This document shows, in pieces, positions 2,625 to 57,418 of a stretch of DNA of 64,000 nucleotides. The DNA is from Candidatus Levyibacteriota bacterium. Its GTDB lineage: Bacteria > Patescibacteriota > Microgenomatia > Levybacterales > UBA12049. The stretch spans positions 35,448 through 99,447 of the forward strand of contig PJMG01000012.1 in the NCBI GenBank assembly GCA_003173895.1. Reading direction: 5' to 3'. The notes under the pieces were generated by a model. It was given only the letters and a program-made list of their open reading frames with translations. It did not search any database and was not told the origin of the DNA. The first letter of the stretch is position 1. The number at the start of each line of letters is the position of its first letter. A program made the translations under genes and the position numbers.

Positions 2625-4013
2625 TTAATGTAAGTTTTTTAATGTTTCTTCTTTACCTAAAATTTCTAACATATCTGGAAGAGGTAAACCTTTATCTTTT
2701 CCTGTAAGAACTTTATACAATAAATTTCCTTTAGCACCTGTAGTTTTAAGAATTTCTCGCATAGCATTTAAAATATTATCTTTATTCCAAATCTTTATAT
2801 TTTCAAATTCTGATTTTAATTTTTTAGCAAAATCTTTCTCTTGAAGAGATAATTCAGTTGGGTTATAAACTACTAAATCTTTAAATTCTTTTAAAGTTTT
2901 CATACGAGATTGCGCAAGTAAAATAATTTGATCCATCTTTGATGCATTTTCTTTAAAGAAACTTTTTATCTCATCATCATCTTTAAAAAATTCTTTTAAT
3001 TTATCACTTAGTATTTCTACTTTAGTGTTTCGTATATATTCTCCATTCATCCATTTTAATTTTTCTAAATCAAAAACCGGACCTACAGGTTTAATATCTT
3101 TAAAATCAAAAACTTCTATAAATTCTTCAAGTGAAAAAATTTCTTTTCCTTCAGGATGACTCCATGAAAGAAGTGCTAAATAATTTCGAATAGCCTCAGG
3201 TAAAAATCCTTCATTTATATACCAATCTACTCCTGTATGACCGTATCTTTTAGAAAATTTAGATTTATCAGGATTTCTGATAGTGGGTGTATGAATAAAA
3301 ATAGGTTTTTCCCAACCGAAATATTCATACATTAACCAATGTTTTGGAAGAGAAGGCAACCATTCTTCACCTCTAACTACATGAGTGGTTTGCATCAAAT
3401 GATCATCTACTACACTACTGGCTAAATGATAAGTAGGGAATCCATCTGCTTTTAGTAAGACAGCATCTTCAATTAAATTAGAATCAAAACTGATTTTTCC
3501 TCTTATTAGATCTTCTACTTCAATAGTTTTATTCTCTGGTACCTTTAAACGGATAATATAAGATTCACCTAATGAGAGTTTTTTTTCTATTTCTTCTTTA
3601 GATAAATTTCTGCAGTGTTTATCATACATGGTGGGTTGATGATTGGTTTCCTGACTTTTACGTAACTGTTCAAGTCTTTCTTTGGTACAAAAACAATAAT
3701 ATGCTCCACCTTTTTCAATTAATTCTAAAGCATATTTCTTATAAATTCCCATTGCTTGTCTTTCTGACTGTCTATAAGGACCAAACTCTCCACCTTTTCT
3801 GGGACTTTCGTCTTCTGTAAGTCCTACCCAATCAAGTCCCGCATAAATTTTATCTTCTGCTCCTTCTACAAATCTAGCTCGATCTGTATCTTCAATTCTT
3901 ATAAAGAATTTCCCATTATTTTTTTTCGCAAAAGCATAATCAAATAGAGCTTGATAAATTAACCCTAAATGCGGAAACCCTGTTGGACTGGGTGCTATCC
4001 TAACTCTTACCAT
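2625..4013 (-). CDS. gltX: Glutamyl-tRNA synthetase
   Basis: Class I HIGH motif (PSPTGFPHLG) and KMSKS-like motif (KFSKR). Full-length similarity pattern to GluRS (462 aa). Confidence 0.9.
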   Translation of the reverse strand: MVRVRIAPSPTGFPHLGLIYQALFDYAFAKKNNGKFFIRIEDTDRARFVEGAEDKIYAGLDWVGLTEDESPRKGGEFGPYRQSERQAMGIYKKYALELIEKGGAYYCFCTKERLEQLRKSQETNHQPTMYDKHCRNLSKEEIEKKLSLGESYIIRLKVPENKTIEVEDLIRGKISFDSNLIEDAVLLKADGFPTYHLASSVVDDHLMQTTHVVRGEEWLPSLPKHWLMYEYFGWEKPIFIHTPTIRNPDKSKFSKRYGHTGVDWYINEGFLPEAIRNYLALLSWSHPEGKEIFSLEEFIEVFDFKDIKPVGPVFDLEKLKWMNGEYIRNTKVEILSDKLKEFFKDDDEIKSFFKENASKMDQIILLAQSRMKTLKEFKDLVVYNPTELSLQEKDFAKKLKSEFENIKIWNKDNILNAMREILKTTGAKGNLLYKVLTGKDKGLPLPDMLEILGKEETLKNLH

Positions 4014-5726: not shown

Positions 5727-6665
5727 TTATAAATTTACTGGTACGTAGTTTACATCTTCCACTACATTATCTATTAATAATTTCGTATCTGCGAAGCGAT
5801 CCTGACTTCCCATAACTATAATAATTATAGTATGCCCATCTTTATTAATAGCTGTTACTAAAACTTGGCCTGCATCTTCTGTGTAACCTGTTTTTATTCC
5901 AAAAACTCCTTTATATCCTAACAGTTCATTTAAACTGATTAGATCAAAACTAGCACTCTGATCGACAGTAGAAATAATTTTTTCTTTAGTTGAAACAATT
6001 TGTCTTAAAACTGGATTCTTAATAGCAAAACTAGAAAGTCTGAATAAATCAATCGGCGTAGTATAATCTCCATCATCTAAAAGTCCGACTGGATCAGAAT
6101 AATGTGTATTATAAAGATGAAGTGCTGAGGCTTTCATATTCATAGCGTTTATAAAAGCCTTTTGGCCTCCAGGATAATTATCAGCGATAGCTATAGCCGC
6201 GTCATTATCTGAAGGTAACATCATAGAATATAAAAGACTTTCAAAAGTTAACTGCTGATTAGGTAAAAATCCAGCGACTACAGGTGGAATATCAGATGAT
6301 TTAATAGTTAAAATTTGATTTAATTTAAAATAATTTAGACCAATAAGTGCGGTCATAATTTTAGTAGTAGATGCTGGTGAAAAATGAAGATTAACATTTT
6401 TACTAGCGATTATTTTTTTAGAATCAGCATCTGCGATGATAAAACTTTGCGCTGAAATATCAGGAATTTGTGAATTTTCAAGTTTGGGATAATAAACTAT
6501 TGTAGGTAAATTCACATTTAATTTTTGGGTCGAAGATTCTTTATAGATTATAAATAGTGTAATGTTAACGGCAACTAGAATAAAAAAAACTACCACTGAA
6601 ATAATAGCTAGTGGGAAATAAAAATTATTTTTCTGCTTTTGGATTAAGTTGAGAAAGTCTTTCAT
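5727..6665 (-). CDS. dacA: Serine-type D-Ala-D-Ala carboxypeptidase (peptidase S11, PBP5-like)
   Basis: N-terminal TM/signal segment. SxxK active site (PASTTKIMTAL), SxN motif (LPSDNDAA) and KTG motif (GIKTGYT) in canonical order. The ORF-track start overlaps the upstream gene by 41 nt; the true start may be downstream. Confidence 0.75.
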   Translation of the reverse strand: MKDFLNLIQKQKNNFYFPLAIISVVVFFILVAVNITLFIIYKESSTQKLNVNLPTIVYYPKLENSQIPDISAQSFIIADADSKKIIASKNVNLHFSPASTTKIMTALIGLNYFKLNQILTIKSSDIPPVVAGFLPNQQLTFESLLYSMMLPSDNDAAIAIADNYPGGQKAFINAMNMKASALHLYNTHYSDPVGLLDDGDYTTPIDLFRLSSFAIKNPVLRQIVSTKEKIISTVDQSASFDLISLNELLGYKGVFGIKTGYTEDAGQVLVTAINKDGHTIIIIVMGSQDRFADTKLLIDNVVEDVNYVPVNL

Positions 6666-8013
6666 CGATTCGTTCCATATCTCGAGGGAAAAGTACTGCT
6701 TTACGAATATTATCTAATTCTAAAATTTTCATGGTTAAACGTTCTAGTCCAAATGAGAATCCTCCTTCAGGTGGCATACCATATTTAAAAGCCATTAAAT
6801 ACATACCAAAGTTTTTAGGATTAACATTTCTTTGTTTCATAACTTCTAAAAGTTTTTCGTAATCATTAATTCTTTTACTCCCACTTAAAATTTCAGCACC
6901 TCTAAAGAGTAAGTCATAACTTAAACTGTACTCTGGATTTTCTGGATCCGGATAAGTATAAAAAGCTCTTTTTTTAGTAGGATAGTGAGTAATAGTTACG
7001 AAATCAGATTTATGTTCTTCGCGAGCCCAAGCACAAATTTCTTTTTCATCTTCAGGATTTAAATCCATTTCTTTACTTAAATCACGCCCAGTCCTTTTAG
7101 TTATTATTTCCTGAGCTTCTCTAAGTTTAAGTCGAGGAATAGAGTTTGGAATAAGTGGCATTTCTATATTTAATTTTTCAAAAATATTTTTATGTTTTTC
7201 TGTAACATTTTTTACGATAGATGATCCTACAAATTCAACTGCATCTAAAAGTTCTTCAAATTTTTCTACGAATGCTATTTCTACATCCATCATAGTCACT
7301 TCTGATAAGTGACGAGTGGTCACTGAAGGCTCTGCACGATAAGCTTTACTAATAGTAAAAACCCGCTCTAAAATTCCCACCATCATCTGCTTATATAGCT
7401 GTGGACTTTGAATCATATAGGCATGATGCCCATAATAATTAACCGAGAATACATCTGCGCCTCCTTCACTAGCTCCAGCTGCTATAGTCGGGACAAAAAT
7501 TTCTGTGGCATCTAATTTTTCAGCAGCATTTCTAAACTCTTCAGCTATAGATGCCTGTATTTTAAAAATATCTCTTTGGGTTTCGTGTTTTAATGTTAAA
7601 GACCTAAAATCAAGTAGAGTAGGCAATTCTAATTTTAAATCAATTCCTCCCATATCAAATGGAAGTGTTTCAGATTTACCAATAACTTCTATATCTTCTA
7701 TTTCTAATTCTACTTTTCCAGTAATAAGTTTAGGATTAACTGCATTTTCTGGTCGAGCATGTACGATCCCTTTTATATAAACCGCTTCTTCAGGTTTTAT
7801 ATTTTTAGCTTTTTCGAAGTTGTCATTTTTAGAGAAAATTACAGTTTGTATTAAAGCACTTCTATCTTCTATATCAAAAAATACTATTTTTCCGTGTTCT
7901 CTTTTAAGTCTTACCCACCCTTTTATCTCTACTTCCTGATCAATTTTTTCAACAGTATCTTTAATTAAAGTTCGCATAAATATAATTTTACCTTTAAAAT
8001 CTCTTCTTGACAA
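6625..8013 (-). CDS. Class IIb aspartyl/asparaginyl-tRNA synthetase (archaeal/compact type; AspRS vs AsnRS not resolved)
   Basis: N-terminal OB-fold anticodon-binding region. Class II motif 2 (FRAEPSVTTRHLSEV) and motif 3 (GGFSFGLERL). QSPQLYKQ signature common to AsnRS/AspRS2. Confidence 0.85.
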   Translation of the reverse strand: MSRRDFKGKIIFMRTLIKDTVEKIDQEVEIKGWVRLKREHGKIVFFDIEDRSALIQTVIFSKNDNFEKAKNIKPEEAVYIKGIVHARPENAVNPKLITGKVELEIEDIEVIGKSETLPFDMGGIDLKLELPTLLDFRSLTLKHETQRDIFKIQASIAEEFRNAAEKLDATEIFVPTIAAGASEGGADVFSVNYYGHHAYMIQSPQLYKQMMVGILERVFTISKAYRAEPSVTTRHLSEVTMMDVEIAFVEKFEELLDAVEFVGSSIVKNVTEKHKNIFEKLNIEMPLIPNSIPRLKLREAQEIITKRTGRDLSKEMDLNPEDEKEICAWAREEHKSDFVTITHYPTKKRAFYTYPDPENPEYSLSYDLLFRGAEILSGSKRINDYEKLLEVMKQRNVNPKNFGMYLMAFKYGMPPEGGFSFGLERLTMKILELDNIRKAVLFPRDMERIDERLSQLNPKAEK

Positions 8014-8096
8014 TAACTTATATGCTTGGTTAAAATAAATATAAATTTATGAGATTCTTTTCTATTGTAAATAAGCAGATTTACTTCCTTAATTAA

Positions 8097-8152
8097 GGGA
8101 GATTTGTATTATTTACATTTTCAATCTCCCCAGATAAAAGGGAGATTTTTTG
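8097..8152 (+). promoter_or_regulatory. Putative attenuator: alternative hairpins (antiterminator A:B vs terminator B:C + U-tract) directly upstream of ORF 8157
   Basis: GGGAGAT (8097-8103) ... ATCTCCC (8124-8130) ... GGGAGAT (8140-8146) followed by TTTTTTGT. The middle segment can pair with either flank. The B:C hairpin plus T-run has intrinsic-terminator geometry on the + strand, yet no + strand gene lies upstream. Confidence 0.4.
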
Positions 8153-8156
8153 TATT

Positions 8157-8402
8157 ATGAGCATAGAGCATTTATCCGATGAAGTATTGAAAGAAAAAGG
8201 AAGTCAATTGTTTAGACTTGAAAGAAGAATTGATAGTTCTCTAGAACAATTAAGGGATGAAAGTTATGAAGGATCTTTACGACATGCTTTAGACGTTGTG
8301 GATGGTATGAGATTAGCTCAAACAGGGCTTTATATAGAATTATACGACGATGGTCATAGTAATGAAGCAAACACTCTTATAAGAAGAGCAAGAGAAAGTT
8401 AA
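8157..8402 (+). CDS. Hypothetical small protein (81 aa)
   Basis: ORF immediately after the structured leader; charged/helical composition; no known motif. Confidence 0.4.
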   Translation: MSIEHLSDEVLKEKGSQLFRLERRIDSSLEQLRDESYEGSLRHALDVVDGMRLAQTGLYIELYDDGHSNEANTLIRRARES

Positions 8403-8481
8403 ATAAAAATGATTATAATTTATAATAAAACTTTAAATTCAGTCAAGCAGAATTATATTCTCTCTCTTTTTATTAGATAGA

Positions 8482-8540
8482 GAGACTGGTTTTTATTTTA
8501 AAATTCCAGTCTCCCAAATAAAAAGGGAGATTTTTTGTAT
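8482..8540 (+). promoter_or_regulatory. Second copy of terminator/antiterminator-like leader element
   Basis: GAGACTGG-(16 nt)-CCAGTCTCCC-aaataaaaa-GGGAGA-TTTTTTGTAT, then ACCCCAGATAAAAAT, which repeats the CCCCAGATAAAAG segment of the first element. Overlapping alternative stems. Upstream of ORF 8663. Confidence 0.35.
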
Positions 8541-8662
8541 ACCCCAGATAAAAATATTTGTAGTATACAATCCACCTATTATTGCTCTGTGAGCCGTGAA
8601 CGAATAGTTCCAAAAGGCGAACAGTAAAATCTGGTGGATAATTCAGAATTATTTTAAAGGAG

Positions 8663-8890
8663 GTGAAAATTATGGCAGAAATAAAACATCCGTGGAGAGA
8701 AGTATTACCAAAATGTGAAGGCTGTGCATTATTTAATTATTGTAAAGAACAAACAGGTATTGTAACTACTAAAAATGGTGAAATTCAAACTGGAAGACGA
8801 GGAAATCCAGAATGTACTCAATGGTTTAGTGCTGAAGGAAGTTTAAAATTAGATTATACTCAACCGGTAAAATTAGCTAATAATAAATAA
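8663..8890 (+). CDS. Small Cys-rich protein of unknown function (likely starts at ATG 8672; 72 aa)
   Basis: Strong RBS AAAGGAGG 8654-8661. Four Cys in C-x2-C ... C-x(n)-C arrangement (CEGCALFNYC ... PEC); possible metal-binding mini-protein. Confidence 0.45.
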   Translation: MKIMAEIKHPWREVLPKCEGCALFNYCKEQTGIVTTKNGEIQTGRRGNPECTQWFSAEGSLKLDYTQPVKLANNK

Positions 8891-8928
8891 CTACCTTTAA
8901 AGTAGCAACTTTATTTATTCATTATTAT

Positions 8929-10581
8929 TTATCGTTTTTTTACATCCTTTATCTTAAGTTGTATGCTTTCTCTTCCATTCCACTCATTTCTATCTATTAC
9001 AAAAACTATATCAATTAAATCCCCTAGTTTAATATTCTGAAACTTATCAACCATATTAAATGCAATCCCATCAATTCTGAATTCTGAATTCTGAATTCTG
9101 AATTTCAATTTCACATGCTTTCTATCTTTTCCAATTAAATTTATTGACTCAATCTTTACATTTTTACTTAAAAATACTGGTTCTGGGTTACTCATTCCAA
9201 AAGGAGAAAGTTTTTGAATTTCATCATAAAAATTTAGATCAACTATAGATAATGGAATTTCCAAATCAATATTTAAAATTCTTTCTAAATGTTCCTCTAA
9301 AATTTCTATTAACGCTAACTCTTCCATTTTTTTCTTTAATACCCCAATTTTTACTGTTTCTATAGTAAAACCAGCAGCCATGGGATGTCCTCCAGCATTT
9401 ACTAAAAACTCAGAATGTTTTCTAATAAATTCAATAATATTAATACCACTTATTGAACGAGCAGAAGCTTTACTAACTCCATCTTTTTTAGAAATTACTA
9501 TTGAGGGTCGATAAAAAGTCTCCACTAATCGTCCTGCTACTAAACCAATAATCCCTTCTTCAAAATCATCTTCGATAATTAAAATATTTTTAATTTTTCC
9601 TCGACTTTTTACTACTTCAATGGCGCGAAGTGTCGAAGCTTGCGTTAATAATTGACGCTCTCTATTAGTTTGACCTAAAGTAAGTGCTAAATTCTGTGCT
9701 CTTTTAATATTTTTAGTACAAAGTAAACGTAAACTATCCATTGCAGATTCCAATCGTCCCATGGCATTAAGACGAGGAGCTATCATATGTCCTACCTCAT
9801 AAATTCCTATTTTTTTAGGGTCAATTCCTGCTTCCTTATATAACATTTGTAAACCTACTCTTTTAGTATCTCTTAAATATTCCAAACCAATTTTTACAAT
9901 CGCTCTATTTGCATCTTTCAGTGGCACTAAGTCAGCGATAGTTCCTAAAGTTACTAAATCTAAAAATTTAGAAGGATCTTCACTTTTTTCTTTACCCTTT
10001 ACGCTTAATACTTTTGTAATTTCTTGCGCAAGCAAATAAGCCACTCCTGCACCACATAGTTTAGTCGTATGAACAGTACTAAAACTTGGAGGCAATTTTT
10101 CACCTCCGCCAGCTGGCGGAGTATGATGATCTGTAATTATTACATCTATTCCATTTTTATTACTAAATTCCACAGCTTCATGTGCCACAATTCCATTATC
10201 AACTGTAATAATTAAACCAATTTTTTCTTTTTCATTTTTATTTATTAAATTTTCTATACCCTTAATCGATAGACCATAACCTTCCTCTACTCTATGAGGA
10301 ATATATGGTTCCACATTCGCACCTAATCCAAATAAAGTTTCCCATAAGATAGCAGTTCCTGTAATTCCATCTACATCATAATCGCCATAAATTATAATTT
10401 TTTCTTTACTTTCAATTGCTTTTTTTATACGTTTTAAACTTTTTTGCAGCTTTTTTTTATCAATCTCAACTGAATCAATTGTTATATCCTCTATTTTGGG
10501 ATTTAAATAATTTTCAATTTCCTTTTTTGTTTTCATTCCTCTATTTTCTAAAAGAATATTTAAAATTTTTCCCATTGTCAT
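8929..10581 (-). CDS. recJ: Single-stranded-DNA-specific exonuclease RecJ
   Basis: DHH motifs (IIIYGDYDVDGITGTAIL; ITDHH) and DHHA1 region (GGHPMAAG). C-terminal OB-like extension. Start chosen at MTMGKIL (10581) rather than ORF-track 10737, to match typical RecJ N-termini and avoid overlap with the divergent NUDIX gene. Confidence 0.85.
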   Translation of the reverse strand: MTMGKILNILLENRGMKTKKEIENYLNPKIEDITIDSVEIDKKKLQKSLKRIKKAIESKEKIIIYGDYDVDGITGTAILWETLFGLGANVEPYIPHRVEEGYGLSIKGIENLINKNEKEKIGLIITVDNGIVAHEAVEFSNKNGIDVIITDHHTPPAGGGEKLPPSFSTVHTTKLCGAGVAYLLAQEITKVLSVKGKEKSEDPSKFLDLVTLGTIADLVPLKDANRAIVKIGLEYLRDTKRVGLQMLYKEAGIDPKKIGIYEVGHMIAPRLNAMGRLESAMDSLRLLCTKNIKRAQNLALTLGQTNRERQLLTQASTLRAIEVVKSRGKIKNILIIEDDFEEGIIGLVAGRLVETFYRPSIVISKKDGVSKASARSISGINIIEFIRKHSEFLVNAGGHPMAAGFTIETVKIGVLKKKMEELALIEILEEHLERILNIDLEIPLSIVDLNFYDEIQKLSPFGMSNPEPVFLSKNVKIESINLIGKDRKHVKLKFRIQNSEFRIDGIAFNMVDKFQNIKLGDLIDIVFVIDRNEWNGRESIQLKIKDVKKR

Positions 10582-10671
10582 CTCAAGCGAAGTCGAGAGA
10601 TCTCGTTCTTTAATCTTTAAATTATTAACTATTTTCCATTTCATATTTGATATAATTTTACCAGAAAATTT

Positions 10672-11145
10672 ATGAAAAGAGGGATTGATTACATAGGCGT
10701 AGGAGTAGGTGCTGCTATTTTTAATAATAAAGGACAATTATTAATTATGCTCCGTGGTAAAAAAGCTAAGAACGAAAGAGGCACATGGGAAATTCCTGGT
10801 GGCTCTGTAGAGTTTAATGAAACATTTGAACAAGCTCTAAAAAGAGAAGTAAAAGAAGAAATAGGAGTAGAAATAGAAATAATAGAACTTTTAGGAATTT
10901 GTGATCATATTATTCCTTCAGAAAAACAACACTGGGTAGCCCCTACATTTATTTGTAAAATTATAAAAGGTAAACCAAAAATAAAAGAAAAAGATAAATG
11001 CGAAAAGCTAGATTGGTTCACCTTAGAAGAAGCAGAAAAATTACCACTATCAATAATCACTAAATGGGATATAGAACAACTTAAAAAGAAATATATTTCC
11101 TTTTTCTCATCAATAAGTAAATCGAAAATACACCAAAAGGAATAA
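10672..11145 (+). CDS. NUDIX hydrolase
   Basis: Nudix box GGSVEFNETFEQALKREVKEEIGVEIE (G-x5-E-x7-REuxEExGu). Confidence 0.75.
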   Translation: MKRGIDYIGVGVGAAIFNNKGQLLIMLRGKKAKNERGTWEIPGGSVEFNETFEQALKREVKEEIGVEIEIIELLGICDHIIPSEKQHWVAPTFICKIIKGKPKIKEKDKCEKLDWFTLEEAEKLPLSIITKWDIEQLKKKYISFFSSISKSKIHQKE

Positions 11146-13099
11146 ATAGAACTGTTACTAATTGTGCTTCTGGATTAGAAAAAGCATCTTCTATTTTATA
11201 GAAAATAAAATTTATAAAAGCTTTTGGCTGATGAATCAATTCTGATTTATTAACAATATAATCACCTTTTATATAATAAGGATTTGTATCCATTAAAATA
11301 TAATCTGCATCAGAAGGATTAGATAAAGTTAAGTCTACTAAATACATTTTATCTTTAGAATTAACTATTGGTGGGAATGCTAATAGATGATTTTTACTAT
11401 CTTTAATTTCTCCTACCGCATAAGAATTAATGGCATACCAATTTTTATCATTTAACTGTTTAATTTTAAAAATTAATTTTTGATTTGTATGGATATTAAT
11501 TTGTCCAGTGGATTTATGGATTATATGTAATATTAAAATCGCAAAATTATTTTCTGTAGATGTAATTTCAAACTTTATAGTGTTATGTTTTTTCATAGAA
11601 ATATATCCACTACTATTTTGCATTTTAGGATTTAAAAAAGTTAAATTTTTAAACTCATTCTGAAGTGAGAAAAGGTTAAAATTAGACTGATATGCTAAGA
11701 AAATAGATAAAATATAAAAACCAATAAAAAATGAAAATATAAATTGAGGAGTTCTAATAATTTTACCTATTTTACTCTCCTTATAATCATCCACATTTTT
11801 ATTTTCATTTTTATCTCTCTTAAAGTAAGGTCTTTCTAGAAAATAATAAGTAATACTGGAAATAATAATAACTAAAATAAAAATAATTATAATTTGAATA
11901 ATATTTATAAATAAATTAGTGGGTAAATTATGATCAATTACCATATGTAAAATAGTTGTATGAGTTAAATAGATGGAATAACTAATGGTCCCTAAAAAAA
12001 CTAAAAAATTAGAACTTAAAAACTTTGATAAAAAAGTTTTATGGTTTAAAGCAAAAGCCATTACAAAAGTTAGCGGAAATGCCCAAAGAATATGAATTAA
12101 AGGACTAAAAGATTGGGGGAAAACCCCTAAGAAAATAGTTTTATAAAATATTAAAAATAAAAATATAAATAAAGTTAAAATTGATAATTTATTAGGAAGT
12201 AATTTATCTAATTTTTCTATTAAATAAGATTTATTTTTATAAATATAACCTAAAATAATTCCTGCTATAAAATAAAAACAAATATAAACTTGTATCATAC
12301 TAAGAACAAATAGTTTTGAAGTTAGGAGAGTTAAACTACAAAATAATGGGATAAGTAAAATTAAAAATGTAATTTTTTCCCATCTTTTTCTTAACTTTAA
12401 AAAATTAATTAATGGTACGCAAATAATAGGATATAAAACGTAAAATAGTACTTCAGCTACTAAACTCCAATAAACTCCATCCAGCATAGGTACATAATTT
12501 CCTAGAGGTAAAGTTAAAGTGGCATTAACTAAAGCTATAGTCGTTTCTCTAAAAATATAGGGAAAATTATAGAAGAAAAATATTGGAGGCTGTCGCATGA
12601 TATAAAATGCATAAAATAATCCCATGAATATTTGAAGAATTAAAAATGAAAAAAACATTAATTTTCTCACACTGGTAGATGCAAACTTCTTAACTAAATA
12701 AACCCAGATAACATAAGTAAAAAGTGAATAAAGTAGAATGATTCCTATTTGAATAAGTGCATTTAAATGTGGCATTAACCATAGATTAAAACGAACGGCA
12801 ACCAAAGTAAGGAATAAAGGAAAAATACGAGTATATCTTTTTTGAAGAAAATGAAGGGAATTAGCAGGATTTGGATAAATACTTGCCATAAAAAATCCCG
12901 ACAGAATAAATAAAAGGGTAACTCCAGTTACTCCGCTCGTGAAAAGTATTTGACTTAGAAATGAACCAATTAAAGGATTTATAAAGAGAGTATTTATATG
13001 ATTTAAAACCACTAGTATTATGGCAAAACCACGGATTCCATCTAAAGCATGAAGACGAAAACTTCTGGAATTTTGTTCCATATTTATTAAATTATACAA
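11081..13099 (-). CDS. Acyltransferase family 3 (O-acyltransferase) membrane protein with C-terminal extracytoplasmic domain
   Basis: About 10 TM helices in the first ~400 aa with the conserved N-terminal R/H region (LDGIRGFAIILVVLNH). ~230-aa non-TM C-terminal domain and a terminal TM helix. Confidence 0.65.
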   Translation of the reverse strand: MYNLINMEQNSRSFRLHALDGIRGFAIILVVLNHINTLFINPLIGSFLSQILFTSGVTGVTLLFILSGFFMASIYPNPANSLHFLQKRYTRIFPLFLTLVAVRFNLWLMPHLNALIQIGIILLYSLFTYVIWVYLVKKFASTSVRKLMFFSFLILQIFMGLFYAFYIMRQPPIFFFYNFPYIFRETTIALVNATLTLPLGNYVPMLDGVYWSLVAEVLFYVLYPIICVPLINFLKLRKRWEKITFLILLIPLFCSLTLLTSKLFVLSMIQVYICFYFIAGIILGYIYKNKSYLIEKLDKLLPNKLSILTLFIFLFLIFYKTIFLGVFPQSFSPLIHILWAFPLTFVMAFALNHKTFLSKFLSSNFLVFLGTISYSIYLTHTTILHMVIDHNLPTNLFINIIQIIIIFILVIIISSITYYFLERPYFKRDKNENKNVDDYKESKIGKIIRTPQFIFSFFIGFYILSIFLAYQSNFNLFSLQNEFKNLTFLNPKMQNSSGYISMKKHNTIKFEITSTENNFAILILHIIHKSTGQINIHTNQKLIFKIKQLNDKNWYAINSYAVGEIKDSKNHLLAFPPIVNSKDKMYLVDLTLSNPSDADYILMDTNPYYIKGDYIVNKSELIHQPKAFINFIFYKIEDAFSNPEAQLVTVLFIPFGVFSIYLLMRKRKYISF

Positions 13100-13210
13100 A
13101 CAAGTAATTTAGTCAATCAATAAGCAAGCCAAAAACTTTAAGTGCAAATAATAAGCTTTACCTAAAATAAATGTTAACCTAAATTTGCTTCGTGTTATAA
13201 TTAATATGTT

Positions 13211-41930: not shown

Positions 41931-42095
41931 AAAGTGAGCAAATATATATTTTAAAATGCATTGAAAGTTTGCTCTATGATAATTTTTAAATTTAATTTAA
42001 GTTTGGTAGCAAACTTTCACGAGCAAGAATGATATTTAATATTAATTTACAAAGCAATGTTTTCGAGCGTCTTTTAAAATATATTTTGCGAACTC
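41931..42095. repeat. Long (~165 bp) imperfect-palindrome dispersed repeat, copy 1 (upstream of tsaB)
   Basis: agtgagcaaatatatattttaaaatGCATTGAAAGTTTGCTctatgataattt...aagtttggtAGCAAACTTTCacgagcaagaatgatatt...gcgtcttttaaaatatattttgcgaactc. Internal GAAAGTTTGCT/AGCAAACTTTC and terminal tatattttaaaa/ttttaaaatata inverted segments. Confidence 0.6.
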
Positions 42096-42131
42096 AAAAC
42101 AAAATCAATCTTATTACAAACCTCTGCTAAC

Positions 42132-42740: not shown

Positions 42741-42800
42741 GTTTAATCAAAAGCGAGCAGAAGTATATTTTAAAACGCATTGAAAGTTTGCTCTATGATA
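42741..42800. repeat. Partial copy (left half) of the ~165 bp repeat, upstream of tsaC / overlapping tsaE 3' end
   Basis: aaagcgagcagaagtatattttaaaacGCATTGAAAGTTTGCTctatgataatttc, near-identical to the left arm of the copies at 41931 and 50763. Confidence 0.45.
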
Positions 42801-43300
42801 ATTTCTCTTTTATTCTCATCTAAAATCTCAAATTTTATTTCCCATCTTTTCTCAGGTAAAAATTTACCTAACTTTTCCGGCCATTCAATGGCTACAATAT
42901 TATTCTTTTCTTTTAAAATATCTAATAATCCTGTAGATTCTAAATCATTTTCATTTTCTAAACGATATAAATCCGCATGATAAAAATTACTAAATTCTTC
43001 AATCTTAACCTTATTTACATTTTTCACTTTTAACTTTTCACTTTTAACTTTATAGCTTCTTACTATTATAAATGTTGGGGAGATAATTCTGTGCTTTATA
43101 CCTAAACCTTTAGCTAACCCTTTAACAAATTGCGTTTTACCTGCTCCTAAATTACCATATAAACAAATGACATCTCCTATTTCTAATTTTTTTGCAAAGT
43201 CAAATCCTAACTTCTCAGTTTCTTCACTACTATTAGTTACCAAAATTTTTTTAAATTTATTTTCCCTTTTTTCCATAACTGAAATCCTAATATACCACAT
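42770..43300 (-). CDS. tsaE: tRNA t6A biosynthesis ATPase TsaE
   Basis: Walker A GNLGAGKTQFVKG; SPTFIIV; YHADLYRL motif. Contains a K/V-rich ~20-aa insertion encoded by a 14-nt tandem duplication. The annotated start overlaps the upstream gene by 64 nt; the true start may be a downstream non-ATG codon. Confidence 0.7.
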   Translation of the reverse strand: MWYIRISVMEKRENKFKKILVTNSSEETEKLGFDFAKKLEIGDVICLYGNLGAGKTQFVKGLAKGLGIKHRIISPTFIIVRSYKVKSEKLKVKNVNKVKIEEFSNFYHADLYRLENENDLESTGLLDILKEKNNIVAIEWPEKLGKFLPEKRWEIKFEILDENKREIIIEQTFNAF

Positions 43301-49688: not shown

Positions 49689-50696
49689 TTAAGTCAATAA
49701 GCGTAGTTCTTCTTCTATAAATTTATCCAAATTTCCATTTAAAACACCTGCAGTATCAGAAGTTTCATACTGCGTCCTTAAATCTTTAACCATGTGATAT
49801 GGGTGTAAAACATACGAGCGAATTTGATTTCCCCATCCAGGCGTTTTATATCCACCTTTTAGTGCTGCTTCAGCTTTTTTACGTTCTTCTTCCTGAATTA
49901 ACCAAAGTTTAGCTTTAAGCATACGTAGAGCATATTCACGATTCTGAAGCTGAGATCTTTCTGTTTGGCAAGTTATGACAATTCCTGTAGGTTTATGTTT
50001 TAAACGAACTGCAGAAGAAACTTTATTTACATTTTGTCCTCCGTGTCCACCTGCTCTAAAAAATTCCCATTCTAAATCTTCATCTTTTACTTCTACATCA
50101 CTATCATTTTCTATTTCTGGAAGGACTTCTACTAAAGCAAATGAAGTCTGACGTAAATTATCCGCGTTAAACGGAGATTGGCGAACCAGTCTATGAGTTC
50201 CTGCTTCAAACTTTAAAAATCCATAAGCATAAGATCCTGTTATTTCTATAGTTATACTTTTAAATCCTGCTTCATCACCTGGTGTTTGATCTATAATTTC
50301 ATATTTCCAACCTTTTTTTTCTATAAATCTGGTATACATACGAAATAAAATTTCACACCAATCCATAGCTTCAGTTCCACCCTGGCCCGAATGAATAGAT
50401 AAAATAGCATTACTCTGATCATGAGCTCCAGAGAAATACAAAAACATTTCCAGTTTTTCTACTATTTTTTCAGCTTCTTCTAAATTATTTTCTTCAAGAT
50501 ACAGCTGAAGCATTTCTATTTCCTCTACTTCTTTTTGCAAATCAGAAAGTTGCTTCATCTTTTCAGATGCGCTTTTATGATCTTGCCAGAAAACAGGATT
50601 TTCACTCTCTTTTTGAAGAGATGTAATTTTTTCTTTTTTAGAATTTATATCCAGTTTTTCTATTATTTTTTCAGCTCGGGCTTTTAATTCATCCAT
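49689..50696 (-). CDS. prfB: Peptide chain release factor 2
   Basis: GGQ motif ([17 protein letters not shown]) and SPF tripeptide (RQSPFNADN), which is RF2-specific. ORF is continuous with no programmed +1 frameshift site. Confidence 0.85.
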
Positions 50697-50762: not shown

Positions 50763-50928
50763 AAAAGAGAGCAGATGTGTATTTTAAACAGCATTGAAAG
50801 TTTGCTTTATAATAATTTGAAATCTAATTTAACTTTGGTAGCGAACTTTCAAGAGCGAGAATGATATTGAATATTAATTCACAAAGCAATGTTTTCTAGC
50901 GTCTTTTAAAATATACTCTGCGAGCTAT
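50763..50928. repeat. Long imperfect-palindrome dispersed repeat, copy 3 (upstream of prfB)
   Basis: aaagagagcagatgtgtattttaaacaGCATTGAAAGTTTGCTttataataattt...AGCGAACTTTCaagagcgagaatgatatt...gcgtcttttaaaatatactctgcgagctat; ~90% identical to copy 1. Confidence 0.6.
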
Positions 50929-50965
50929 AGTAAAAGAGGTTATAAAAGTCCATTTGTTTCAAAAT

Positions 50966-51310
50966 TTATAATTTATCGCAGATTTGAAGGCAGGCGTTTT
51001 TAGCATTATTTAAAGGTGTTTGCGGTAACTGTTGAAGCTCCTGAATAATCTGTCTTACTTGAGGTGAACTGCTAGCTAATTGATTTAAATTAATATTTTT
51101 TGCCTGATCTTGAATAGAGTTAATAGTTCCAGCTACCGCAGAATTTGTAGATGAATTATTAGTAGAAATTTCTATTCCCTTTACCTCTTTTTGTAAAACT
51201 AATGGAACAACAGTCTGCTTTTTATTAAAATAACCATTTTTGTATAAATAAAATCCTCCAACTCCTATTCCAATTAAAAATAAAAAAAGAAAAAATTTCA
51301 TATTATCCAT
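50966..51310 (-). CDS. Small secreted/membrane-anchored protein (114 aa)
   Basis: N-terminal hydrophobic segment; Q/N/S-rich; no motif. Confidence 0.3.
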   Translation of the reverse strand: MDNMKFFLFLFLIGIGVGGFYLYKNGYFNKKQTVVPLVLQKEVKGIEISTNNSSTNSAVAGTINSIQDQAKNINLNQLASSSPQVRQIIQELQQLPQTPLNNAKNACLQICDKL

Positions 51311-52275: not shown

Positions 52276-52423
52276 CAAGATTTAATTGAAAATTTGCTGT
52301 TTAGTAATTTCGTAATTTAATTAAAGTTTGGTATCAAACTTTCAAGAGCGAGAATGATATTCTATATTAATTTATAAAACAATTTTTACGAACGTCTTTT
52401 AAAATATACTCTGCGAGCTATAG
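52276..52423. repeat. Long imperfect-palindrome dispersed repeat, copy 4 (upstream of uppP, left terminus shortened)
   Basis: attgaaaatttgctgtttagtaattt...aagtttggtATCAAACTTTCaagagcgagaatgatatt...gaacgtcttttaaaatatactctgcgagctatag. Confidence 0.55.
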
Positions 52424-52455
52424 ACAAGCCATAAAAACATACTTATACTAAGTTT

Positions 52456-52788
52456 ATGAATTTAAAAGATTTACAAAAAAGATTAGATACTACACTTTCA
52501 CAAATTAAACCAAAATATAAATTATATACTCCCATGGAAAAAGAATTATTGACACAAACTGTAAAGTTAAACGAAGAAGTAGGAGAATTATGTAATGATA
52601 TTTTATCTGTTTTAAAACTTCAGAGAAAATCAAAATTGGAAAAATTTGAAAAGAAAAATTTTTATGAAGAATTCGCTGATGTAATAATTTCTACTATACA
52701 ACTCGCAAATACTGCACATGTAGATATTCAAAGAGCAGTAAATGATAAAGTTAAAAAAATTGAAAAAAGATATATAAAAGACCACTAA
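52456..52788 (+). CDS. MazG-like nucleotide pyrophosphohydrolase domain protein (small, 110 aa)
   Basis: All-alpha. E-E-x-x-E-x(n)-E-x-x-D pattern (LNEEVGELCNDI ... EEFADVIIS) typical of MazG/HisE-like NTP pyrophosphatases. Confidence 0.45.
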   Translation: MNLKDLQKRLDTTLSQIKPKYKLYTPMEKELLTQTVKLNEEVGELCNDILSVLKLQRKSKLEKFEKKNFYEEFADVIISTIQLANTAHVDIQRAVNDKVKKIEKRYIKDH

Positions 52789-52835
52789 GTCTTATTGCAG
52801 AAAAATTTACTTAGAAGTATTATGTTCCTACTCCC

Positions 52836-53987
52836 ATGAATGACATTACTTGTCCAAACTGTGGTAAACCAATTGAAATATCTCAAGCACTTCAACATCA
52901 AATTGAAGAACAAATTACTATTAAATTAAAAAATCAATATACTGAAGAATTTGAAAAACAAAAAGAGAAAATAAAAAAACAAACAGAGGATAAAATTAAA
53001 GAAGATTTAAATCTTCAAATAAAAAATTCTGCTAATGAAGTAGAAGAATCTAAAAAGAAAAATGAACAGTTACAAACACAACTTCTAGAACTTACTAAAA
53101 ACCTTCGTGAATTAAAAGATAAAGATCAAACCAGAGAATTAGAAATGCAAAAAAAACTTTTAGATGAAAGAGAAAAAATGAAAGATGAAATTTCTAAAAA
53201 TATCCAAGAAAAATCAAATTTAGAAATTCTCGAAATGAAAAAGCAACTAGATGATACTAAAAAAGCTCTAGAAGAAGCACAGAGAAAAGCAGCTCAGAAG
53301 TCTCAACAACTACAGGGAGAAGTTTTAGAATTGGAATTAGAGGAACTTTTAAGAAACGCTTTCCCGCTGGACCAAATAGAACCTGTAGCTAAGGGTGTAA
53401 ATGGAGCTGACATCAAACATTTGGTTAAAACCCCTATGGGAAATATTTGCGGCATTATTCTATGGGAGTTTAAAAGAACCAAACATTTTGATGACAAATG
53501 GACTCAAAAACTTAAAGATGATTTAAGAAATGCTAAGGCCAATATCCCAGTTATCGTAAGTATGGAATTACCTCTAGAAGCCAAAAGTGGTATGGGAATT
53601 AAAGATGGAGTTTGGATTTGTAATATGCAATTAGTTATTCCTTTAGCAGAATTATTACGTAAAAATTTATATGATATAGCCCGTCAAAAAGCTATTAATG
53701 ATAAAGCATCAGAGAAAGCAGATTTAATTTATCAGTATATTACTAGTCATGAATTTCAACAACAAGTTGAATCAATTATAGAAACATATACTAGCATGCA
53801 ACAACAATTAATGAAAGAAAAAACTGCATTTGAAAGAATCTGGAAAGTGAGAGAAGGACAAATAGATAAATTACTTCGGGGTACTGCTAATATTATTGGT
53901 AGTATCCAAGGAAAAGGTGCTACTTTACCATCAATTAAAGGATTAAATTTAATTGAAGATGTAGATCAACAAAATTTATTAGAATAA
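52836..53987 (+). CDS. Zinc-ribbon + long coiled-coil + C-terminal PD-(D/E)xK-like domain protein (DUF2130-like)
   Basis: N-terminal CPNCG zinc ribbon. ~150 aa K/E-rich coiled coil. C-terminal GADIKHLV ... ILWEFKRTK fits D ... E-x-K restriction-endonuclease-fold spacing. Confidence 0.45.
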   Translation: MNDITCPNCGKPIEISQALQHQIEEQITIKLKNQYTEEFEKQKEKIKKQTEDKIKEDLNLQIKNSANEVEESKKKNEQLQTQLLELTKNLRELKDKDQTRELEMQKKLLDEREKMKDEISKNIQEKSNLEILEMKKQLDDTKKALEEAQRKAAQKSQQLQGEVLELELEELLRNAFPLDQIEPVAKGVNGADIKHLVKTPMGNICGIILWEFKRTKHFDDKWTQKLKDDLRNAKANIPVIVSMELPLEAKSGMGIKDGVWICNMQLVIPLAELLRKNLYDIARQKAINDKASEKADLIYQYITSHEFQQQVESIIETYTSMQQQLMKEKTAFERIWKVREGQIDKLLRGTANIIGSIQGKGATLPSIKGLNLIEDVDQQNLLE

Positions 53988-53988
53988 T

Positions 53989-55494
53989 CTATTGATTTAG
54001 CATAGTAGTATTTTCTAGCATCATTTTAGCCTGTTCATAATTTATAACCCACCCTGTATGTAACATACTTTTATAAAATGGTGTTTTAAAAATATTTCCG
54101 TTTTTATCGTATAGTTCAGGATATCCCCCATATTTAAGAATATTATTTTTATACGCATCTAAACCACTCTCAGCATCTGATAAAAATTTAGGATCATAAT
54201 TACCTAAGAGTATTAGAGTCTCTATATATTCCTGGCCTAAATGGCTCCAAATAGATTGTCCCATGTAAGAAGTAGCAAAATAATGAACAAAAAAGTAAAG
54301 ATTATTTACTTCATCTTTTTGAGCATAAAAAAGTGGAAAAGGTTTATCTAAGTTATTTTTCTGAACATAATTTACCATTTTAATTAATTTAGCTCTATCA
54401 TCAGAATTCCTAAAATCTAAAAAATTTAATGAAGTCACTATAAATTCTTCACCAGTATATTCATGATTTTTTATAGATTCTGATGATAAATCATTTATAA
54501 ATAATCCATCCCTATCATCCCAGAAATTTTTTATAATATTTTCTTTCCATTTATTAAAATCACAAGAATTACTATTTAAATAAAAATTCGGACAATTTAT
54601 TTTCAGTCCTAGTGATATAGCATCTTTAGCAGTTCCCCACGCAATTACATTATCATAAAAACTACTTTGTCTTTTTATACTATCTCTAGCACTGGAAAGG
54701 GTAATATCTTTTTTAATTAAGCCTGTATTGGAATCAATAACATAAATTAAATAATTATTTATTGCTTTTGTTAAGGTAAGTTTATAAGTGGAAACTAAAT
54801 TTTTAGCTGCATTTGTAGTTTGTAAGGAATAATTAAAATCATTAATTTTAGCGGGTAAAGAAATAGAAATAAAATTAGGATTTATAGCTGCGTTTAAAGT
54901 ATAAACAATAGCAAAAAGTGAATCCGAAGGATAAGTATTAAAATTAGTTCCTACGAAAGTATTACTGTTTATAGGCGTAAAAGTGGTGTATTCCTGACCA
55001 TTAGTTTGTTTAAGTAACTCTAAATCTATGGCAATTGTTTGTAAAGTGACCCTTTGGCGAGTTTCCCAATCAGATTTAGAACTAGGGATTCGAGAATCAA
55101 GCATAGCACTATAAAAAACACCAAAATTTCTTACATATAGATCAGGAAAATGACCTCCACTTATCGTATATGGGGTATTCACATTAAAACGTTCATTATG
55201 AATTTGATCTATTATCTGTTGCTCATTTCCTTTAAAGGGTCTCTCGGAAAAATAGACATCAGTTTCTACTCTAAATATGGATTGGAAATACATTAATAAT
55301 TTAGAAAATGGACTATTAAAGACATAAAGATTTCTAGTTTTTTTAAGAATTATTTGTCCATTTTTATCAAAAGAAGTAGTAAAAAATGGTTTTACCCAAG
55401 TATTTTTACTATATGGATTATTTTTATCTACCCACCAAAAACCAAGTGAGAAAATTATTATTAAAAAAACAATCAAGCTGAATAACTTCTTCAT
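53989..55494 (-). CDS. Secreted hypothetical protein (501 aa)
   Basis: Signal/TM N-terminus; N/S/T-rich. Possibly a glycoside hydrolase-like fold, but no motif secured. Confidence 0.35.
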   Translation of the reverse strand: MKKLFSLIVFLIIIFSLGFWWVDKNNPYSKNTWVKPFFTTSFDKNGQIILKKTRNLYVFNSPFSKLLMYFQSIFRVETDVYFSERPFKGNEQQIIDQIHNERFNVNTPYTISGGHFPDLYVRNFGVFYSAMLDSRIPSSKSDWETRQRVTLQTIAIDLELLKQTNGQEYTTFTPINSNTFVGTNFNTYPSDSLFAIVYTLNAAINPNFISISLPAKINDFNYSLQTTNAAKNLVSTYKLTLTKAINNYLIYVIDSNTGLIKKDITLSSARDSIKRQSSFYDNVIAWGTAKDAISLGLKINCPNFYLNSNSCDFNKWKENIIKNFWDDRDGLFINDLSSESIKNHEYTGEEFIVTSLNFLDFRNSDDRAKLIKMVNYVQKNNLDKPFPLFYAQKDEVNNLYFFVHYFATSYMGQSIWSHLGQEYIETLILLGNYDPKFLSDAESGLDAYKNNILKYGGYPELYDKNGNIFKTPFYKSMLHTGWVINYEQAKMMLENTTMLNQ

Positions 55495-55745: not shown

Positions 55746-56552
55746 ATGTTAAATTCATTTGAAAAAACCATTTTAGAAATAGAAAATTATTGTAATAAAA
55801 ATAATCTTGACCATAGATTTGTTGGTGGTTCTTCTTTTGGAGGTTTATTAAATAAAAAAACCACATGGAAAATAAATATTAAAAATAGAGAAGTAATTTT
55901 AACAAATAATAATAAATTAACTTCACTTAGAAAAGATAAAACCTTAAAGGATATAGATTTAATTATTTTTGAAAAAAATAAAAATAAATTAAAAAGCTTA
56001 AAAAAAATTTATAATAAAAAGTCAAATAAAAAATCACGTTTAAGTTTAGAGAATGCAGTTTATTTTCCGAATAAAATTAATTCTCTCTTACAATTTGTAA
56101 CTACTATTTATATAGATAAAGATAATGAGTATTATCTGCAATTTGGAAATATAAAAGAAAAAATTTTGAAAAAATCACTAGAGGCTTGGACTGTAATTCT
56201 AAATGATAAGTTAAAATATTCTGTCCGGAATCCTATAGCTGATTATTTCGCATATCAATTTCGAAGTCCTGGCGGAATAAAAGAAAAAGATAAAAATAAA
56301 TTAATTTTGCTTAAGAAATTAAGTGATGATGTAATTAAAAACGGGAGGAAAAATAATATCGATTTCTTATTAGATCAGTATTATAATTCCTGGTTTAATT
56401 TTATTCAAAAATTACAAACGTCAAATGATTATAATATTAGAATAAAAAGAACTCTTATGAAAATTTATTGGAAAACTATTGGTGAATATTTAGCACATGG
56501 TAAAGGAATTACAAAATATTTCCAATTTTTATCAGATAAGTTCACAGGATAA
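55746..56552 (+). CDS. K/N-rich hypothetical protein with Pol-beta-type nucleotidyltransferase-like G-S ... D-I-D-L motif
   Basis: FVGGSSFGGLL ... (low-complexity insert) ... KDIDLIIF resembles the GS-x(n)-DxD head of minimal/ANT-type nucleotidyltransferases. Spacing is atypically long. Confidence 0.3.
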   Translation: MLNSFEKTILEIENYCNKNNLDHRFVGGSSFGGLLNKKTTWKINIKNREVILTNNNKLTSLRKDKTLKDIDLIIFEKNKNKLKSLKKIYNKKSNKKSRLSLENAVYFPNKINSLLQFVTTIYIDKDNEYYLQFGNIKEKILKKSLEAWTVILNDKLKYSVRNPIADYFAYQFRSPGGIKEKDKNKLILLKKLSDDVIKNGRKNNIDFLLDQYYNSWFNFIQKLQTSNDYNIRIKRTLMKIYWKTIGEYLAHGKGITKYFQFLSDKFTG

Positions 56553-56557
56553 ATATT

Positions 56558-57418
56558 TTACAATACTTTTTTAATTAATTTTTCTGTGTTAGTTAACGTT
56601 TGAGTTAATGCAAAATGCATTAAAGTTTGAGTTATTGGTAGAGCCTTTTGCATGTTTACAAATCCACTATCTAGAAGCATTAAATGATATTCATCATTAT
56701 TCCTAATTATTTCTAGATTCCCTTCTCCTAAAAGATCTGGCTCTAATTCATAATCTTTTAAGAGTGTATTACACAATTTTTTAAAAGCATTAAATTCTTT
56801 AATTAAAATTTTTCTTTGATCATCATTTAATTTTTTCTTTACTCTTGATGGTTTTACTACATGTAAAAATGGTTGTAACACTAATGTTCTTTCAGTTGTA
56901 ATTCCTTCCTCTTGTAATTTAGCCCAGATAATTTCTTCGGGTTTTGGCAGTAAATTATTTAATTCTTTGTATTTCTTTAATTCTTTCTTTAAAATATCTA
57001 AGTGTTTTTTCCTTTCTTTATAATAATCCTCTGTAGATGGATCGCCAAAATCTACTACCAATGATAATTTATATCCTATTTTTAAAACCCACTTTTTTAT
57101 ATCCTCACCAACAAATGTTTTAAAAGTTATTAATTTACTATTAAACCCTTTTTTAAAATGTTTTACTTCAAAAAACTCTCCACTTTCTCCAAATATTTCT
57201 TTAAAAACTAGATTTGAAGCTTTATTATTTTTTAGATAATTTCTAAAGTAAATCAGAAAACCAATTGCTTCTTCCATTTCTGTATGAGTCCAGATAAATT
57301 TATCTTTTATTTTTCCGCCTATTCTATATAGAAATGATGTGGATTCTCTATATAGAGCTTTAACAATATTTTTAGTTTTCATTGTCTTAATTTTACCTGT
57401 ATTTGATAAAATATGCAC
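56558..57418 (-). CDS. K/N-rich hypothetical protein (286 aa)
   Basis: ORF only; convergent with 55746 and divergent/overlapping with 57403. Confidence 0.3.
   Translation of the reverse strand: MHILSNTGKIKTMKTKNIVKALYRESTSFLYRIGGKIKDKFIWTHTEMEEAIGFLIYFRNYLKNNKASNLVFKEIFGESGEFFEVKHFKKGFNSKLITFKTFVGEDIKKWVLKIGYKLSLVVDFGDPSTEDYYKERKKHLDILKKELKKYKELNNLLPKPEEIIWAKLQEEGITTERTLVLQPFLHVVKPSRVKKKLNDDQRKILIKEFNAFKKLCNTLLKDYELEPDLLGEGNLEIIRNNDEYHLMLLDSGFVNMQKALPITQTLMHFALTQTLTNTEKLIKKVL

Follow-up and report, generated by a model that had tools for sequence, protein, structure and literature searches.

The window analysed here is the whole 64-kb stretch of the Candidatus Levyibacteriota contig PJMG01000012.1 (29.8% G+C), the proteins of which are closest to those of Patescibacteria/candidate phyla radiation (CPR) metagenome-assembled genomes of the Levybacteria/Microgenomates type. 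It carries two adjacent genes, one encoding a MazG-like protein of 110 amino acids (aa) and the other a 383-aa protein of the DUF2130 family (PF09903/COG4487), which an earlier reading of the sequence (the original prediction) had proposed to form a two-gene defence or stress module. Both open reading frames (ORFs) were confirmed to be present exactly as predicted, with start codons that agree with those of their homologues. Our analysis indicates that the pair is probably no dedicated two-gene system but a case of chromosomal housekeeping genes for DNA maintenance that are neighbours and likely to be transcribed together. The candidate defence module can be set aside, and the pair is best described as a lineage-specific juxtaposition of two catalogued families.

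The evidence that carries this conclusion comes from a comparison of loci, which was drawn from relatives, the window's own DUF2130 protein having no record in the contig index. For the DUF2130 family, 80 loci from different species were taken with 6 kb of flanking sequence on either side, and a hidden Markov model (HMM) built from the MazG family of the window was run over their six-frame ORFs at a threshold of E ≤ 10. The MazG family was found within ±6 kb of DUF2130 in none of the 80 species loci, the only matches being those of the window and of its nearest relative (L001). Conversely, DUF2130 was found at E ≤ 1e-3 in none of 80 metagenomic loci of the MazG family (L088-L167), among which 42 had at least 1300 nucleotides (nt) of downstream sequence. 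Co-localisation of the two genes as a module in other genomes was, in short, not observed in either set of loci, and the adjacency is limited to the nearest relatives of the window.

In L001, the DUF2130 protein of which is 74% identical to that of the window, the arrangement is syntenic, with release factor 2 (RF2), a small ORF, MazG, DUF2130, an alkyltransferase (3663-3980) and the same three unknown genes as in the window. Identity between the window and L001 was 84% for RF2, 75% for MazG, 74% for DUF2130, 71% for a 286-aa unknown protein and 48–63% for the remaining neighbours; the two genes of the pair thus rank with the most conserved ones in the locus, under a constraint typical of core genes. 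The L002 species (L002-L004 and L008; DUF2130 67% identical) has uppP, then DUF2130, then a protein of 121 aa and finally the alkyltransferase (L002 7499-7807), and no member of the MazG family of the window occurs in the L002 locus retrieved. The 121-aa protein showed no significant similarity to the window's MazG family by hhalign or BLASTP, and it is placed in the MazG superfamily solely through its own homologues and motifs: it carries KLVRD...EExxE...ExxD motifs, its family is annotated at the source as [quoted passage not shown], where NTP stands for nucleoside triphosphate, and some members match PF01503/PF03819. An HMM of this second family matched, among the 80 DUF2130 species loci, that of L008 alone, and its relatives adjoin HIT, thymidylate-kinase-like, NDK and NUDIX genes. 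The L002 pyrophosphatase is an apparent non-orthologous replacement of the window-type MazG. Of the species sampled (80 in all), only the closely related three represented by the window, L001 and L002 have some MazG-superfamily gene next to DUF2130.

The 110-aa protein is, as judged from its sequence, a single-domain, all-alpha MazG-superfamily NTP pyrophosphohydrolase. It scored 28.0 bits against Pfam MazG (PF03819; cut-off 22) and 27 against MazG-like (PF12643; cut-off 27). At least 879 homologues were found, and the best 120 listed were 66–100% identical to the window protein. In an alignment of 24 homologues, E40, E41, E44, D48, E72 and D75 were invariant, so that all four predicted metal-binding residues (E41, E44, E72 and D75) are present and conserved. 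Furthermore, a profile of the homologue alignment matched solved proteins, first SSO3215 (1vmg; E 2.9e-6) and then 4qgp, 5ie9, YpjD (2gta) and DCTPP1/RS21-C6, and the EExGE and EExxD motifs of the window family aligned with the ligands of the solved MazG-like proteins (EEVGE...EELAD in 1vmg). The MazG-type assignment made in the original prediction, with its EExxE...ExxD pattern, was borne out by these matches. The AlphaFold monomer model consisted of four helices, with a predicted local distance difference test score (pLDDT) of 73.5 and a predicted template modelling score of 0.35. With a mean column identity of 66% across Patescibacteria homologues, the family is, in its sequence features, a distinct and tightly conserved Patescibacteria subfamily.

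The window protein is similar to YpjD of B. subtilis, SSO3215 of S. solfataricus and mammalian DCTPP1/RS21-C6 in its size range (about 100–120 aa), its predicted all-helical nature and its EExxE...ExxD pattern, but its family differs from them in having partners of its own. The gene immediately downstream of MazG on the same strand encodes an approximately 100-aa DNA_binding_1 protein in 28 of the 60 loci with enough sequence (for example L110, with MazG at 6001-6327), and this protein, which comprises the C-terminal domain only, retains the IPCHRV (PCHR) active site of O6-alkylguanine alkyltransferases. On the upstream side stands either a 127-aa protein adjoining prfB, or uppP, or else an HhH-GPD glycosylase, with ftsE and ftsX further away. 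By analogy with YpjD, DCTPP1 and SSO3215-type enzymes, the MazG-like protein would form a helical-bundle oligomer, bind Mg2+ via E41/E44/E72/D75 and cut the alpha-beta bond of non-canonical (deoxy)nucleoside triphosphates to yield the nucleoside monophosphate and pyrophosphate, and such house-cleaning would keep damaged precursors out of DNA. Because the conserved partners are the PCHR O6-alkylguanine alkyltransferase and the HhH-GPD glycosylase, the genomic context suggests that the substrates would be nucleotides damaged by alkylation or in other ways. The tightly conserved operon of a MazG-like protein and a minimal O6-alkylguanine transferase in Patescibacteria suggests joint protection of the nucleotide pool and of DNA against alkylation in very small genomes. 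As a separate observation, the combination of the MazG-like protein and the alkyltransferase, often with the HhH-GPD glycosylase alongside, resembles a conserved pair for "pool sanitation + direct reversal".

The 383-aa protein is a full-length, high-scoring member of DUF2130 with all the invariant residues of the family and a predicted nuclease fold. The Pfam match (E 3.4e-58; 197.4 bits against a cut-off of 26.7) spans residues 129-372 and profile positions 3-252 of 255, and at least 3865 homologues were found at E ≤ 1e-5 among 8000 candidates scored. Residues invariant in 29 Patescibacteria-type homologues, which show a mean column identity of 57%, include C6, C9, Q158, Q160, G161, E162, E165, E169, D179, K186, G187, G190, A191, D192, E211, K213 and T215. 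C6, P7 and C9 as well as E162, D192, E211 and K213 stayed invariant after the addition of distant homologues from Campylobacterota, Bacteroidota and Mesorhizobium plasmids, a Helicobacter prophage record, Ca. Brocadia (a Planctomycete), Dormibacteria, Cytophaga and Chlorobiaceae. The D...E-F-K spacing pointed out in the original prediction corresponds to D192...E211-F-K213.

The AlphaFold model (pLDDT 78.5) comprised a small N-terminal hairpin, one continuous helix over residues 18-175 and then a nuclease core with strands 180-183, 193-198 and 204-213, helix 221-233 and strand 237-242, followed by long helices 264-303 and 305-357. This arrangement corresponds to an alpha-beta-beta-beta-alpha-beta restriction-endonuclease core, in which E162 lies on helix 1, D192 at strand 2 and E211-x-K213 on strand 3. 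The QxQGExxExxxE motif (Q158-E169) is located at the C-terminal end of the long helix, and the C-terminal helix pair carries the invariant residues R275, K294, Y301, F307, E328, W336 and R339. The endonuclease-like C-terminus and the coiled coil were, accordingly, both predicted well in the original reading, the latter being modelled as a single helix. Of the predicted zinc ribbon, only a part stood: the CPxC knuckle with its invariant C6 and C9 is present, but no second conserved Cys pair or CxxC was found across the homologues, H21 is variable and a four-ligand ribbon is not formed. The zf_UBZ and Zn_ribbon_3 Pfam matches at the N-terminus were weak and below threshold, and a search of the PDB sequences with the DUF2130 profile gave coiled-coil noise only.

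DUF2130/COG4487 has already been catalogued as PD-(D/E)xK family 109 of unknown function (Steczkiewicz et al, 2012; PMC3424549), and the window protein has nothing that sets it apart from this family. Literature searches yielded no functional study of DUF2130, COG4487 or PF09903. Both proteins of the pair being further members of known families, the interest lies mainly in DUF2130, which is still uncharacterised in the literature searched. The modelled fold and the conserved residues suggest that it would be an Mg2+-dependent PD-(D/E)xK phosphodiesterase acting via E162, D192, E211 and K213 at the end of an approximately 155-residue, CPxC-capped helix. This helix is presumed to be a coiled-coil dimerisation arm, through which DUF2130 most likely dimerises; its substrate would most likely be DNA, in the course of repair or recombination. 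Compared with the nuclease domains of Hjc (the archaeal Holliday-junction resolvase), NucS, Bax1, McrC and Can2/Card1, to none of which it has a sequence-level relationship, DUF2130 adds the CPxC knuckle, the long helix and the C-terminal helical pair. RmuC (E. coli YigN) is a "recombination-limiting" protein with a coiled coil and a PD-(D/E)xK domain. It has an extended helical stretch at the N-terminus and, after it, a nuclease of restriction fold, a likeness to the layout of DUF2130 that is an analogy only. DUF2130 showed no similarity to RmuC, with an hhalign probability of 0.04% in a weak test against a single target, E. coli RmuC, and no match to Pfam RmuC.

The genes around DUF2130 vary by lineage, and no neighbour family occurred in more than 14 of the 80 loci. 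Among the immediate same-strand neighbours (n = 81 proteins), PDDEXK_1 was found 9 times, RNase HII 6 times, and UvrD_C and RecO 4 times each. AddB (AddB_N + UvrD_C + PDDEXK_1) lies directly downstream on the same strand in L075, L078 and L079 (about 7300-10900), two of which are Ca. Brocadia and the third another member of the Planctomycetota, and an AddA-like UvrD-helicase/PDDEXK_1 protein does so in Berkelbacteria (L082, 3503-6508). UvrA, UvrC, RNase HII, an AP-endonuclease-2-type protein and Pol X occur near DUF2130 in L005-L007, and the neighbours elsewhere also include Cas4-like nucleases. Taken together, DUF2130 is a broadly distributed, predicted coiled-coil nuclease with intact catalytic residues, found mostly in recombination and repair neighbourhoods and sometimes in those of defence genes or plasmids. 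It is a reasonable target for biochemical characterisation.

No defence genes were found near the pair in the window. The MazG-like protein matched no PADLOC model, and the DUF2130 protein gave low-scoring coiled-coil noise only (ZorA, LmuB and JetC). A scan of all 70 ORFs of the window gave matches to 23 PADLOC families (E ≤ 1e-5), and those traced to a gene were generic ATPase matches, namely FtsE (mad3, mad8 and AriA) and a ClpB-like ATPase (PDC-M37B and DolB). There were no further matches in the genes between 46.3 and 61.0 kb, with prfB (49689-50696) not scanned individually and the remaining families not traced to a gene. The Pfam scan detected no PUA, HAD or other sensor partner beside the pair, and the window's MazG family had no match in 50,697 phage records. 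The proximity to defence genes entertained in the original prediction was not found, since no defence island surrounds the pair and its neighbours are housekeeping genes.

The sequence of events we propose is that, in the small clade of the window, DUF2130 would have settled in or beside an ancestral operon of an NTP pyrophosphatase and an alkyltransferase next to prfB, so that the adjacency would represent lineage-specific synteny and, at most, a loose "DNA-maintenance" grouping. Several points weigh against the view that the two are merely neighbouring housekeeping genes. The repair or recombination role of DUF2130 is drawn from gene neighbourhood only, and the neighbour counts are not independent events, as related genomes share synteny. 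The Foldseek search of the moderate-confidence MazG monomer model against the PDB gave no match at E ≤ 0.001, and the membership in the MazG fold hence depends on sequence profiles; monomer modelling of a presumably intertwined oligomer may explain the missing match. The presence of a MazG-superfamily gene beside DUF2130 in three related species could be a real, if local, functional link. Furthermore, DUF2130 genes are carried by 45 records of plasmids and by 7 of Helicobacter prophages. On the Aliarcobacter butzleri plasmid NZ_CP104379.1 (L169 4518-9724), it is directly upstream of an OLD-like ATP-dependent endonuclease, a UvrD helicase and a DNA methyltransferase, a set of neighbours that we judged to be Gabija-like, and on the Chryseobacterium oryzae plasmid NZ_CP094531.1 (L171 1013-8478), it has a WYL protein on one side and a type I restriction-modification (R-M) system on the other. 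It is also found directly upstream of Cas12a (Cpf1) in two Patescibacteria loci, L080 (7263-11048) and L020 (7223-11224). The former has a CRISPR array at 12992-13152, the repeat of which ends in TCTACTTTTGTAGAT, the usual Cas12a repeat stem.

The main rival to this interpretation, which we regard as unlikely, is a clade-specific DNA-damage operon with a common target such as alkylation damage, in which the pyrophosphatase would sanitise the pool, the O6-alkylguanine transferase would reverse the lesion and DUF2130 would process lesions or stalled intermediates. It would account for the order MazG, DUF2130 and alkyltransferase in L001, with gaps of 45 and 4 nt, for the order DUF2130, other MazG-superfamily pyrophosphatase and alkyltransferase with 4-nt overlaps in the L002 species, where the replacement apparently keeps the trio, and for the 47-nt gap of the window, which has no terminator-like site. 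However, the three close relatives amount effectively to one evolutionary event and one rearrangement, the alkyltransferase is missing from the window locus and from the entire 64 kb as searched by tblastn, and elsewhere MazG precedes the alkyltransferase without DUF2130, and DUF2130 occurs without either.

A bolder proposal, and in our estimate quite an unlikely one, is that DUF2130 is an unrecognised but widely conserved enzyme for processing DNA breaks or branched DNA. It would have a nuclease head, a helical arm of about 23 nm and an invariant terminal CPxC, with two protomers sharing zinc as in the Rad50-type zinc hook; it could replace missing recombination machinery in the reduced genomes of Patescibacteria and cooperate with AddAB or RecO, and in the clade of the window it would be wired into the NTP-pyrophosphatase/alkyltransferase damage operon. 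There is also a small chance that DUF2130 by itself is a nuclease of defence or mobile-element conflict, for example an abortive-infection or anti-plasmid effector, to which the MazG-like neighbour would be incidental. The plasmid and prophage records, the adjoining OLD-like endonuclease/UvrD/methyltransferase, type I R-M and Cas12a genes, and structural neighbours that include Can2/Card1, McrC and restriction enzymes are consistent with such a function.

The module of the original prediction, acting through nucleotide depletion and a nuclease against phages or stress, is highly improbable: the two genes do adjoin each other in one orientation and are probably transcribed as a unit, and nucleotide-depletion systems (dCTP deaminase/dGTPase and the predicted PUA-MazG-HAD) contain, or could contain, an NTP-hydrolysing enzyme as the pair does, but the pairing is absent from the 80 + 80 loci the one exception being the L002 species, where the pyrophosphatase belongs to another family, and the MazG family, for which we found no PADLOC or phage match, no defence island and no PUA, HAD or sensor partner, is very highly conserved in a housekeeping manner and keeps company with repair and housekeeping genes. 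MazG domains figure among defence domains that are predicted but not validated (PMC13092281), and a part as rare effectors in PUA-HAD systems is likewise a prediction (bioRxiv 10.64898/2026.01.15.699771).

Returning to the reading of two neighbouring housekeeping genes, the coordinates of the pair, its predicted domains and the features around it are given in Table 1.

Table 1. Positions of the gene pair, its predicted motifs and domains, and surrounding features (window coordinates unless a locus is named).
Feature	Position	Strand	Remark
MazG-like gene	52456-52788	+	110 aa
Metal-ligand motif E41-x-x-E44	52576-52587	+	Candidate; invariant in 24 homologues
Metal-ligand motif E72-x-x-D75	52669-52680	+	Candidate; invariant in 24 homologues
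DUF2130 gene (PF09903/COG4487)	52836-53987	+	383 aa
CPxC zinc knuckle, residues 1-17 (C6, C9)	52836-52886	+	Low-confidence beta-hairpin in AlphaFold model
Long helix, residues 18-175	52887-53360	+	One continuous helix in AlphaFold model; pLDDT 80-92 over residues 40-140
PD-(D/E)xK core, residues 158-262	53307-53621	+	Candidate catalytic E162, D192, E211, K213
C-terminal long-helix pair, residues 264-357	53625-53906	+	Within DUF2130 profile
121-aa MazG-superfamily pyrophosphatase	L002 7137-7502		Between DUF2130 and alkyltransferase, 4-nt overlaps; same in L003, L004, L008
Promoter-like site TAGACA-17-TATACT	52421-52449	+	Just 5' of MazG-like gene; consensus match only
114-aa ORF upstream of prfB	50966-51310	-	Homologues in L001 and L002
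501-aa gene	53989-55494	-	No Pfam, NCBIfam or PADLOC match
268-aa gene	55746-56552	+	No Pfam, NCBIfam or PADLOC match
286-aa gene	56558-57418	-	No Pfam, NCBIfam or PADLOC match
Repeat copy (about 140 nt)	52285-52423	+	uppP/mazG-like divergent intergenic region
Repeat copy	50793-50930	same orientation	85.6% over 139 nt vs 52285-52423
Repeat copy	41960-42102	same orientation	82.5% over 143 nt vs 52285-52423
Partial repeat copy	42750-42806		Intergenic

Because the same-strand gap between the MazG-like gene and DUF2130 is short and contains no terminator-like site, co-transcription is plausible and, on this layout, likely. A promoter-like site lies just upstream of the pair; it is a match to the consensus only, and the count of promoter-like sites was not above that of shuffled sequences. 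The surrounding genes of the window encode Sua5, C39-like peptidases, FtsEX, PrfB, UppP/BacA, conserved unknowns and ClpB. The end of DUF2130 abuts the convergent 501-aa gene (53987-53989). This gene and the 268- and 286-aa genes keep their order and orientation in L001 and L002 at 48–71% identity, and they form a clade-specific block adjoining the pair. On the other side, 21 of the 69 MazG loci with enough upstream sequence have an ORF of approximately 127 aa that separates prfB from the MazG gene, at a position equal to that of the 114-aa ORF of the window. A representative of it had only a weak, sub-threshold match to Csa3_N, and its likeness to the 114-aa ORF is positional.

The original prediction had described the pair as flanked by repeat elements. 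A blastn comparison of the intergenic sequence with the 64 kb showed three copies and so confirmed the upstream repeat, a partial fourth copy being present as well; all are intergenic and spread over about 11 kb, but no copy was found in the window downstream of the pair, and the repeat therefore does not bracket the pair or delimit a cassette. Within every full copy there is an inverted repeat of 13 nt, TTGAAA(A/G)TTTGCT ... A(G/T)CAAACTTTCAA, the arms of which (TTGAAAGTTTGCT / AGCAAACTTTCAA) are about 34 nt apart. Neither the repeat nor its region matched Rfam, a pattern search allowing up to 3 mismatches recovered the 52285-52423 segment alone, and a repeat scan of 51-55 kb gave chance matches only. 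In all the fetched loci outside the window, including L001 and L002, a single weak match was found (L123; E 0.0098). Consensus folding of the three copies gave a 13-bp stem on either strand with essentially no covariation, three sequences only being compared. Possible identities of the repeat include a promoter/operator cassette, a small RNA and an element resembling a miniature inverted-repeat transposable element. The full copies each lie just 5' of a minus-strand gene, namely a 107-aa ORF, prfB and uppP.

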